Below, piece after piece: positions 1,891 through 2,369 of a stretch of DNA of 64,000 bases. Where the stretch lies: NCBI GenBank assembly GCA_020348445.1, contig CP070751.1, forward strand, positions 222,006 to 286,005, given 5' to 3'. The notes beneath the pieces were generated by a model. It saw nothing but the letters and a program-made list of their open reading frames with translations. It was not told where the DNA came from and ran no database searches. Each line of letters opens with the position of its first letter. Position 1 is the stretch's first letter. Made by a program: the position numbers and the translations under genes. Origin of the DNA: Thermoplasmata archaeon. GTDB taxonomy: Archaea; Thermoplasmatota; Thermoplasmata; GCA-020350865.

Positions 1891-2332
1891 AGCCCCGGGC
1901 CGCAGAAATAAGAGATAATTAGAGTTCCATTATATTTCTAGGTAAGTGGCTAATCTGGATGACAACTTATAAAAGAGGAAGAGTAGCCCCGAGTGGATTC
2001 GAACCACCGTCTCCGGTTCCAAGGACCGGAATGATTGACCAGCTACAACACGGGGCTATTTGATTTGAACTTGTAGAGGCCAAATAGCCCCTAGCACGAG
2101 GAAAAGCGATATCAAAACTGTCTCAATACTTTTCCTCCATGACACGGGGCTTCTATGATTAAATTCTGCTTTATACTAATCCCCTATCAGAAAAAAAAGG
2201 TTATTATGTTATTAAGATTTCTTTTTTTCTACTAAGGGGCTTTATAGCATTATATCGCAACATTCAAATCCCCTTGCAGTAAATAAAGAGTTGGGAGGTT
2301 GCTGCAATTCCTTTTTTTACTACTACGGGGCT
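1891..2332 (-). repeat. Tandem array of about 92-bp period: four hairpin units plus the tRNA-Gln gene, all bounded by A(G/T)CCCC...G(G/T)GGCT
   Basis: GGGGCT starts at 2052, 2146, 2236 and 2327 (GTGGCT at 1946); AGCCCC/ATCCCC starts at 1891, 1985, 2086, 2179 and 2268. Each non-tRNA unit has inner inverted arms around a 22-nt core. Confidence 0.8.
1984..2057 (-). tRNA. tRNA-Gln(UUG), intronless, CCA not encoded; atypical C33 and U10
   Basis: Reverse complement folds as a cloverleaf: acceptor AGCCCCG/CGGGGCT (A1-U72, typical of archaeal Gln), anticodon arm CCGGT-CCTTGGA-ACCGG, T arm GGTGG-TTCGAAT-CCACT, discriminator A. Confidence 0.85.
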
Positions 2333-2369
2333 ATTTGACACAGAGACTCCGATAAGTCATTTCTCCTTC

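Follow-up and report, generated by a model that had tools for sequence, protein, structure and literature searches.

Putative tRNA-linked hairpin repeats around a tRNA-Gln gene and across one genus of Thermoplasmata

The tRNA-Gln(UUG) gene of a Thermoplasmata archaeon is flanked by short hairpin units that copy its own ends, and these units appear to be the local members of a family of tRNA-linked hairpin repeats that is spread through the genome and restricted to a single genus of uncultured Thermoplasmata. We analysed the window, a stretch of 64,000 nt of contig CP070751.1 (positions 222,006 to 286,005), together with the rest of the genome (G000) and the genomes of its relatives. The reading we favour, at a probability of roughly 55%, is that the units are archaeal tRNA-linked cassettes, which have been duplicated at tRNA ends, are kept palindromic and lie in tRNA leaders and trailers. 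Judged by their sequences, the cassettes would be neither tRNA-Gln decoys nor guide RNAs. Literature searches did not find a description of such repeats in archaea. New here are the Gln variant with its 22-nt loop, the test for a one-strand origin of the outer stems, the census of the genus and the comparison of orthologous loci, as well as composite copies without a tRNA and an inverted copy inside the E. coli repeats known as TLRs. The TLRs have been known since 1978 and are still unexplained. The archaeal genus carries the TLR design far more pervasively, at both ends of most tRNA genes, with covariation and measurable turnover, and this pervasive version brings two questions within reach of a test, the origin of such repeats and their possible expression as RNA.

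The array at tRNA-Gln(UUG)

The array lies on the minus strand, immediately 3' of the rdgB/Ham1-family NTP pyrophosphatase gene (2370-2933, same strand; from the ORF list, with Pfam PF01725 at E 3e-50), and runs, after a gap of 37 nt, through U4, U3, U2, tRNA-Gln(UUG) and U0. A sequence-only reading of this DNA had described five such units with a period of about 89-101 bp, beginning 33-38 nt after the rdgB stop; the layout and the gap are as described, and the start-to-start spacings are 89-101 nt.

U4 (2268-2332) and U3 (2179-2241) are upstream-type (A) units and score 76.9 and 66.4 bits, respectively, with model R1, a covariance model of the Gln upstream units. U4 begins with a copy of the tRNA-Gln 5' end and has an A-rich/T-rich inner stem around an A/C-rich loop of 22 nt; in U3, a T8 run lies on the tRNA strand within the 3' arm. 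U2 (2086-2151), the upstream-type unit adjoining the tRNA, was recognised from its fold, from its ortholog in a congener (G003) and with model R1, and begins with the first 10 nt of tRNA-Gln(UUG) itself. At the junction of U2 and the gene, a repeat search found a perfect 11-bp inverted repeat with an 18-nt spacer (2052-2091), which pairs the U2 3' arm plus 5 nt with the 5-nt leader plus the first 6 nt of the tRNA. The palindrome runs past the mature tRNA end, joining the U2 end and ATTTG to CAAAT and the tRNA start, and this 5-nt extension covaries between species, being ATTTG/CAAAT in the window and GTTGG/CCAAC in G003.

The tRNA-Gln(UUG) gene (1983-2057, minus strand; ARAGORN, Rfam tRNA 50.4 bits) is of the archaeal type (A1-U72) and encodes no CCA. 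U4, U3 and U2 sit 5' of it, and U0 (1891-1951) sits 31 nt 3' of it, beyond a T-rich spacer (1952-1982) that contains the TATA-like TTTTATAA and was delimited from the sequence and the downstream-module alignment. U0 is a diverged copy of a genus-wide downstream module, as its alignment with 18 downstream modules shows; it is made up of an inverted copy of the tRNA 3' end, an inner hairpin whose loop is homologous to GTTAT...TCTTAAGC, and a direct copy of the 3' end. Its 3' arm belongs to a direct repeat of the tRNA 3' end and 3' flank (1878-1897), which is identical to 1972-1991 at 16 of 20 positions and exact over the last 8 nt of the tRNA and 3 nt of flank. Likeness of the units to tRNA-Gln is limited to its first 10-13 nt and its last 6-8 nt.

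Two familiar kinds of array were considered and rejected. The units are not tRNA pseudogenes, as the tRNA alone scores as a tRNA within the array; nor do they form a CRISPR array, as no tandem repeat was detected and what recurs is a pair of inverted arms, with homologous loops as the 'cores' between them. On the 3' side of the array, the minus-strand ORFs at 1097-1810 (237 aa) and 617-1066 (149 aa) have no Pfam match.

The five-unit layout stands far above chance. The 64-kb window contains four copies of the start motif AGCCCCKTRK, all on the minus strand between 2048 and 2332, with 0.67 expected and the count of four reached in 0 of 100 shuffles. The pattern AGCCCC-N50-62-GGGGMT matches the tRNA, U2, U3 and U4 only (0.19 expected in the same 64 kb). 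Tandem-repeat detection found nothing on the array. Folding, proposed earlier as a check, bears out three of the units, U4, U3 and U2, which beat their shuffles (z -3.05, -2.45 and -4.45), but not U0, which folds no better than its shuffles (z -0.66).

U2-U4 align with 12 further Gln upstream units. Across 12 of 15 Gln upstream-type units, 89% of cells are paired and double changes occur at 3 pairs; the arms indeed differ from unit to unit and stay complementary through compensatory changes. The distance between the arms is 22 nt in all four window units and, measured from AAAAG to CTTTT, in 13 of 15 upstream-type Gln units from five congeneric genomes. Structured, covarying arms and this fixed spacing support the earlier view that the units are not simply decayed tRNA duplicates. 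The ends read as GGGG(C/A)T are present; on comparison of the units, however, the GGGGAT that ends U4 and U3 has the appearance of GGGGCT-ATTTG with 2 nt deleted.

In the curated alignments, G.U pairs outnumber A.C pairs (20 vs 6 in the Gln upstream units and 47 vs 19 in the downstream hairpin), an excess that in each alignment stems mostly from a single inherited position. A strand-asymmetry test of G.T against A.C in stems, run with a symmetric stem finder over all tRNA flanks, found no asymmetry; it is uninformative, since its positive control, the genome's rRNA and RNase P RNA, was also flat.

The worry that the array is an assembly artefact can be set aside as unlikely, because the window lies within an N-free 154-kb stretch and orthologous units occur in four other assemblies. 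As a whole, the 'single contig' of this genome contains 353 runs of exactly 100 N, which marks it as a scaffolded or partly masked assembly.

Repeats at other tRNA genes of the genus

About 27 of 36 dispersed tRNA genes have their own first/last 10 nt copied in their flanks (at most 1 mismatch, within 600 nt), the first 10 nt being sought upstream and the last 10 nt downstream in a set of 36 that omits the tRNA cluster at 4.64 Mb. A common layout is visible at the 16 tRNA loci that were read. Going outward, and mirrored at both gene ends, it consists of the gene terminus (10-13 nt), an AT-rich spacer (18-28 nt), an inverted copy of the terminus, an inner hairpin and a direct copy, and it is often iterated. 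The window units show the feature by which we recognise a tRNA-flanking hairpin module, namely the end of the neighbouring tRNA copied once directly and once exactly inverted, on either side of a family hairpin. The sequence-only reading had tied the units to tRNA-Gln and GatDE, a specificity that does not hold, as the same architecture is found at Ala, Ile, Leu, Ser, Thr, Arg, Gly, His, Phe, Asp and other tRNA genes.

The inner hairpin of the downstream units has invariant GTTAT and TCTTAAGC motifs, a conserved T.G irregularity and stems that covary freely. A pattern search for this hairpin gave 39 matches, about 35 of them real and most of them 3' of a tRNA once intron-containing tRNAs are called. 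The inner motif is fixed, yet stems and outer arms vary by locus; the nearest relatives of U0 lie behind another tRNA-Gln and behind tRNA-Ala, and in the latter the outer arms are those of tRNA-Ala. Upstream units have a common GTGG...CCAC hairpin, of which U4, U3 and U2 represent a long-loop variant. The clustered tRNA genes at 4640571-4643566, at least 20 in number, have no flanking hairpin modules, and neighbouring genes fill their flanks; this cluster is possibly a mobile or viral tRNA island.

Not all copies keep the usual relation to a tRNA. At 3 loci, the inner hairpin of the downstream unit is inverted with respect to the tRNA. In addition, seven composites of about 113 nt (at 395424, 924461, 2621089, 3219289, 3473574, 3486843 and 4029784 of the same contig) consist of two joined hairpins, one of the GTGG...CCAC type with a loop of 22-23 nt and one of the GTTAT...TCTTAAGC type, and are preceded by C/T-rich sequence. 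Six of the seven have no tRNA detected within 600 nt, and the exception, at 3219289, is 295 nt away from tRNA-Leu(GAG), on its upstream side. Flipped hairpins and composites without a tRNA point to behaviour at the DNA level rather than to a function of the tRNA transcript.

The outer stems had been read as mimics of the tRNA acceptor stem. tRNA-Gln cannot separate a mimic from an inverted copy, because its acceptor stem is fully Watson-Crick; the test sites were therefore tRNAs with G3.U70 or another non-Watson-Crick acceptor pair. At these genes, 7 units have an inverted arm that is exactly reverse-complementary to the adjacent strand, and 0 units have an arm copied from the other strand of the tRNA. 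This 7:0 outcome means that the units copy the gene-end strand and not the identity of the acceptor stem, and mimicry is given up. From this pattern, the outer stems would not carry identity pairs and would be unlike clean RNase P/tRNase Z substrates. The wider lesson is that a hairpin that looks like an acceptor stem can be an inverted copy of one strand of a gene end, and decoy or mimic readings therefore need a control with tRNAs that have a G.U pair.

The tRNA-Gln(UUG) of G003 (locus L002, G003:C364, about 1330-1503) has a C4.A69 mismatch (5' AGCCCC, 3' GGAGCT). Its upstream unit is the reciprocal hybrid (5' AGCTCC, 3' GGGGCT), and the arm adjacent to the tRNA matches the tRNA start perfectly. 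What is homogenised at this locus seems to be the short-spacer palindrome rather than the acceptor stem.

The family is confined to one genus. Model R1 matches in 5 of 5 genus genomes and in 0 of 36 other genomes of the class, one weak partial match excepted. Each of the five genus genomes has 11-28 copies of the strict downstream motif; each of the 246 other genomes of the class has 0-1, which is the level of the reversed control. Among 185,579 species genomes, repeated matches to the downstream motif were found in four Thermoplasmata/'Methanomassiliicoccales' MAGs only.

Within the genus, unit number varies and the 22-nt spacing is mostly kept, as the comparison of relatives had been expected to show. 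At the orthologous rdgB-tRNA-Gln locus of G003, U2 is present and U4, U3 and U0 have no counterpart. U2 is 83% identical between the two genomes, with identical stems, against 67% for the rdgB coding DNA and about 48% for the linkers. Unit number thus turns over, and at least U2 is under constraint or homogenisation. Synteny between the window and G003 stops at the tRNA.

A second locus in this genome (3896427-3899902) contains three more tRNA-Gln genes around the gene for GlnRS, interleaved with the same kinds of units, and such units are also present at the syntenic loci of four congeners. The GlnRS gene itself (G000:C1:3897031-3898605; locus L024:1014-2690, minus strand) matches the NCBIfam glnS equivalog at 755 bits; GlnRS is present in 17 of 61 sampled class genomes. 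This genome also has two gatE genes (2877665-2879575 and 3727626-3729503). The tRNA-Gln genes around GlnRS fall into two sequence types, both of which include CUG as well as UUG anticodons, an arrangement suggestive of two tRNA-Gln sets in parallel. Elsewhere, a bacterial-type tRNA-Gln (U1-A72; G000:C1:1131962-1132035) lies directly after a GroES-like small ORF and before a Q-rich ORF, in what is possibly a viral or foreign segment or a contamination of the bin.

Possible origin of the cassettes and the alternatives

We propose that the cassettes would arise and spread at the DNA level, through duplication at tRNA ends and homogenisation of palindromes, with single-stranded hairpin intermediates as a possible route. 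As parts of leaders and trailers in which the end of the tRNA is formed anew, the cassettes are probably, at least in part, transcribed and then trimmed at these ends by the enzymes that process tRNA ends, by analogy with the E. coli TLRs. RNase P RNA is present in the genome, and in several arrays the outermost unit is preceded by a TATA-like box. A scan for TTTAWATA (at most 1 mismatch) found no box within 60 nt upstream of the window tRNA or of U2, and its matches are too sparse to place promoters.

One proposal of the sequence-only reading was a co-transcribed array, cut by tRNA-processing enzymes into RNAs that carry 22-nt guides. The guides do not stand; the idea of cassettes that are co-transcribed with the tRNA and cut by tRNA-end enzymes survives in a generalised form. 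A single long co-transcript of the array is doubtful, because of the T8 run on the tRNA strand of U3 and because oligo-T is a stop signal for archaeal polymerases. This run, together with the weaker T-rich arm of U4, probably stops read-through from rdgB.

Some observations count against the tRNA-linked cassettes as we propose them. Within upstream-type units, T7-T8 runs speak against transcription that continues into the tRNA; the helix frequently runs on past the mature ends of the tRNA, unlike a substrate of RNase P/tRNase Z; and the flipped hairpins at 3 loci and the composites without a tRNA point to a DNA-level element. No enzyme was linked to the repeats.

The main rival, which we consider possible though rather unlikely, is a selfish, REP/MITE-like hairpin element. 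It would insert 3' of the ends of tRNA genes, on either strand, in the form of a single-stranded cassette made up of spacer, guide-like inverted copy, hairpin and direct copy. The inverted copy would pair with the target, and a Y1 HUH transposase or a tyrosine recombinase would mobilise the element in trans. The order of target, linker, complement, hairpin and target resembles the topology of IS608-type ends. Tandem iteration, turnover of copy number between congeners and multicopy spread restricted to one genus all fit such an element, as do the flipped inner hairpins, the composite copies away from tRNAs and the conserved T.G irregularity. Indeed, the HUH/RAYT-like transposase that the sequence-only reading would look for has candidates in the genus, as Y1 transposase genes are present in 5 of 5 genus genomes, with 5-17 in each. 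However, the Y1 genes inspected (2860419, 3339079 and 4214534/4215093) have no such hairpins nearby, unlike single-copy RAYT genes, which are flanked by their cognate REP hairpins. Y1 genes are also found in 13 of 36 relatives that lack the repeats. Conservation of U2 above the neutral level at an orthologous site likewise speaks against a selfish element, and no copy was found in viral contigs, where the downstream hairpin motif gave one chance match without a stem. Moreover, we know of no element that re-tailors a 10-13 nt arm for each target. The REP/MITE-like repeat first suggested here was one that targets tRNA-Gln; a general form of it survives, and its restriction to tRNA-Gln does not. 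The selfish element and the tRNA-linked cassettes are not mutually exclusive. Identical IS200-like copies in this genome abut runs of N, so that their boundaries cannot be set.

Another possibility is unlikely. In it, a new kind of self-propagating element at tRNA ends would re-template its arms for each target, via a folded single strand or via tRNA-end processing and re-integration, and the Gln variant with the 22-nt loop would be a processed, functional small RNA, for example one that bridges leader and trailer hairpins by pairing of CCCAAC and GTTGGG loops.

The loops themselves bear on whether the array encodes guides. They had been described as unrelated and unique to each unit. In fact, the U2 loop is identical to that of its G003 ortholog at 16 of 22 positions, the U3 loop resembles one in G001, and the paralogous loops have a common make-up. 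On the tRNA strand, the Gln upstream loops are A/C-rich and G-poor (9.5% G vs 27.5% C), and many contain CCCAAC, which is complementary to GTTGGG in the downstream-unit loops of the GlnRS locus. Complementary runs of at least 7 nt between upstream and downstream loops occur in 10 of 25 pairs, compared with 5.5% in shuffles. Specific pairing between cognate upstream and downstream loops was considered and rejected, as the complementarity is family-wide and, within the window, only U4 shows it.

An array of RNAs of about 65 nt with 22-nt guide or antisense loops is therefore very improbable. The 22-nt spacing in 13 of 15 units, the G-poor loops and the CCCAAC/GTTGGG complementarity speak for it, but the loops are homologous, the complementarity is non-cognate, and the search for targets that had been recommended came back empty. 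Whole units gave only chance-level matches of 14-18 nt in the genome, related units apart, and the U4 and U2 loops, the two cores searched as exact 20-mers in the viral contigs of IMG/VR, had no match. A guide function of the loops is thus unsupported, as they are homologous and no target was found in the genome or, for U4 and U2, in viral contigs. Nor did the array match a known RNA family: Rfam over 1700-2500 gave no family besides tRNA and no match to RtT (RF00391) at E up to 10, there was no C/D box or H/ACA signature in the form of a snoRNA-type Rfam match near the gathering score, and no unit contains TGATGA.

Equally little probability attaches to remnants of att sites and to partial tRNA duplications, as integrases and the later decay of mobile elements would leave them at tRNA genes. 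Such integrations typically produce direct repeats of tRNA 3' ends, and true tRNA 3' halves do lie downstream of the GlnRS-adjacent tRNA-Gln(CUG) in G000, G001 and G003. This origin leaves unexplained the inverted copies, the covarying inner hairpins, the mirrored units at 5' ends and the constant spacing, and no integrase gene was seen at these loci; the architecture largely refutes it.

Decoys for tRNA-Gln-specific enzymes (GatDE, GlnRS) that present an A1-U72 acceptor stem are hardly credible: the outer stem does equal the acceptor stem of tRNA-Gln, and the genome encodes GatE and a GlnRS gene surrounded by such units, but the same cassettes flank most other tRNAs, acceptor identity pairs are not kept where this can be tested, pair 2-71 is a G.A mismatch in both U4 and U3, and one-strand outer stems with a palindrome that extends beyond the tRNA ends deprive the idea of its basis.

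Relation to known repeats and elements

Among known systems, the units share with REP/BIME/REPIN-RAYT repeats and IS200/IS605 palindromes the form of short, multicopy, intergenic hairpins with conserved motifs and covarying stems, restricted to a lineage. They are unlike REP/REPIN in that the outer arms are copied from the neighbouring tRNA and are not borne by the element, and in their strong preference for tRNA ends. In IS200/IS605 elements, guide sequences at the ends pair with the cleavage sites.

Integron attC sites and the attP(+) site of CTX phage provide a second parallel, as a hairpin stem there reproduces a double-stranded target site; the order after insertion of such a folded site would be target, rest of the element, target. 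Unlike attC and attP(+), the units have target-specific arms that differ from locus to locus, and they carry no cargo. Archaeal att sites of the SSV/pNOB8 type likewise have direct repeats of tRNA 3' ends near tRNA genes, and differ from the units in having no inverted copies, conserved hairpins, copies of 5' ends or periodic units of 60-100 nt.

Closest in layout are the TLRs of E. coli (rttR/RtT of tyrT-tyrV and rrA/rrB/rrF; Egan and Landy 1978, Rudd 1999), reviewed in PMC8144298. By the definition given there, a TLR ends in an 18-19 bp copy of the 3' end of the preceding tRNA and directly follows a tRNA or rRNA gene of its operon; E. coli has 22 at ten loci, which are transcribed and processed and have a mostly unknown function (PMC8144298). 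The archaeal downstream units follow a tRNA, U0 at a distance of 31 nt, and like TLRs they occur in tandem and end in the tRNA's own 3' end. Unlike TLRs, they are archaeal, are 60-100 nt long instead of 178, and copy 8-13 nt without CCA instead of 18-19 (8 nt plus 3 nt of flank in U0 and 10-13 nt in the other downstream units). They also accompany about three quarters of the dispersed tRNA genes here, compared with ten loci in E. coli, and the mirror-image upstream units, which copy the 5' end, fall outside the published definition of a TLR.

The likeness extends to the inside of the E. coli repeats. At tyrT-tyrV of MG1655 (locus L093, 1286200-1287900), each 178-bp TLR includes the 10-nt GGGGAAGGAT, which copies part of the tRNA-Tyr 3' region in inverted form; the definition in PMC8144298 does not mention this inverted copy. 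In the predicted minimum-energy fold, GGGGAAGGAT pairs with the terminal direct copy around internal hairpins. The tyrT TLRs and the archaeal units therefore have the same layout of inverted copy, hairpins and direct copy, without similarity of sequence.
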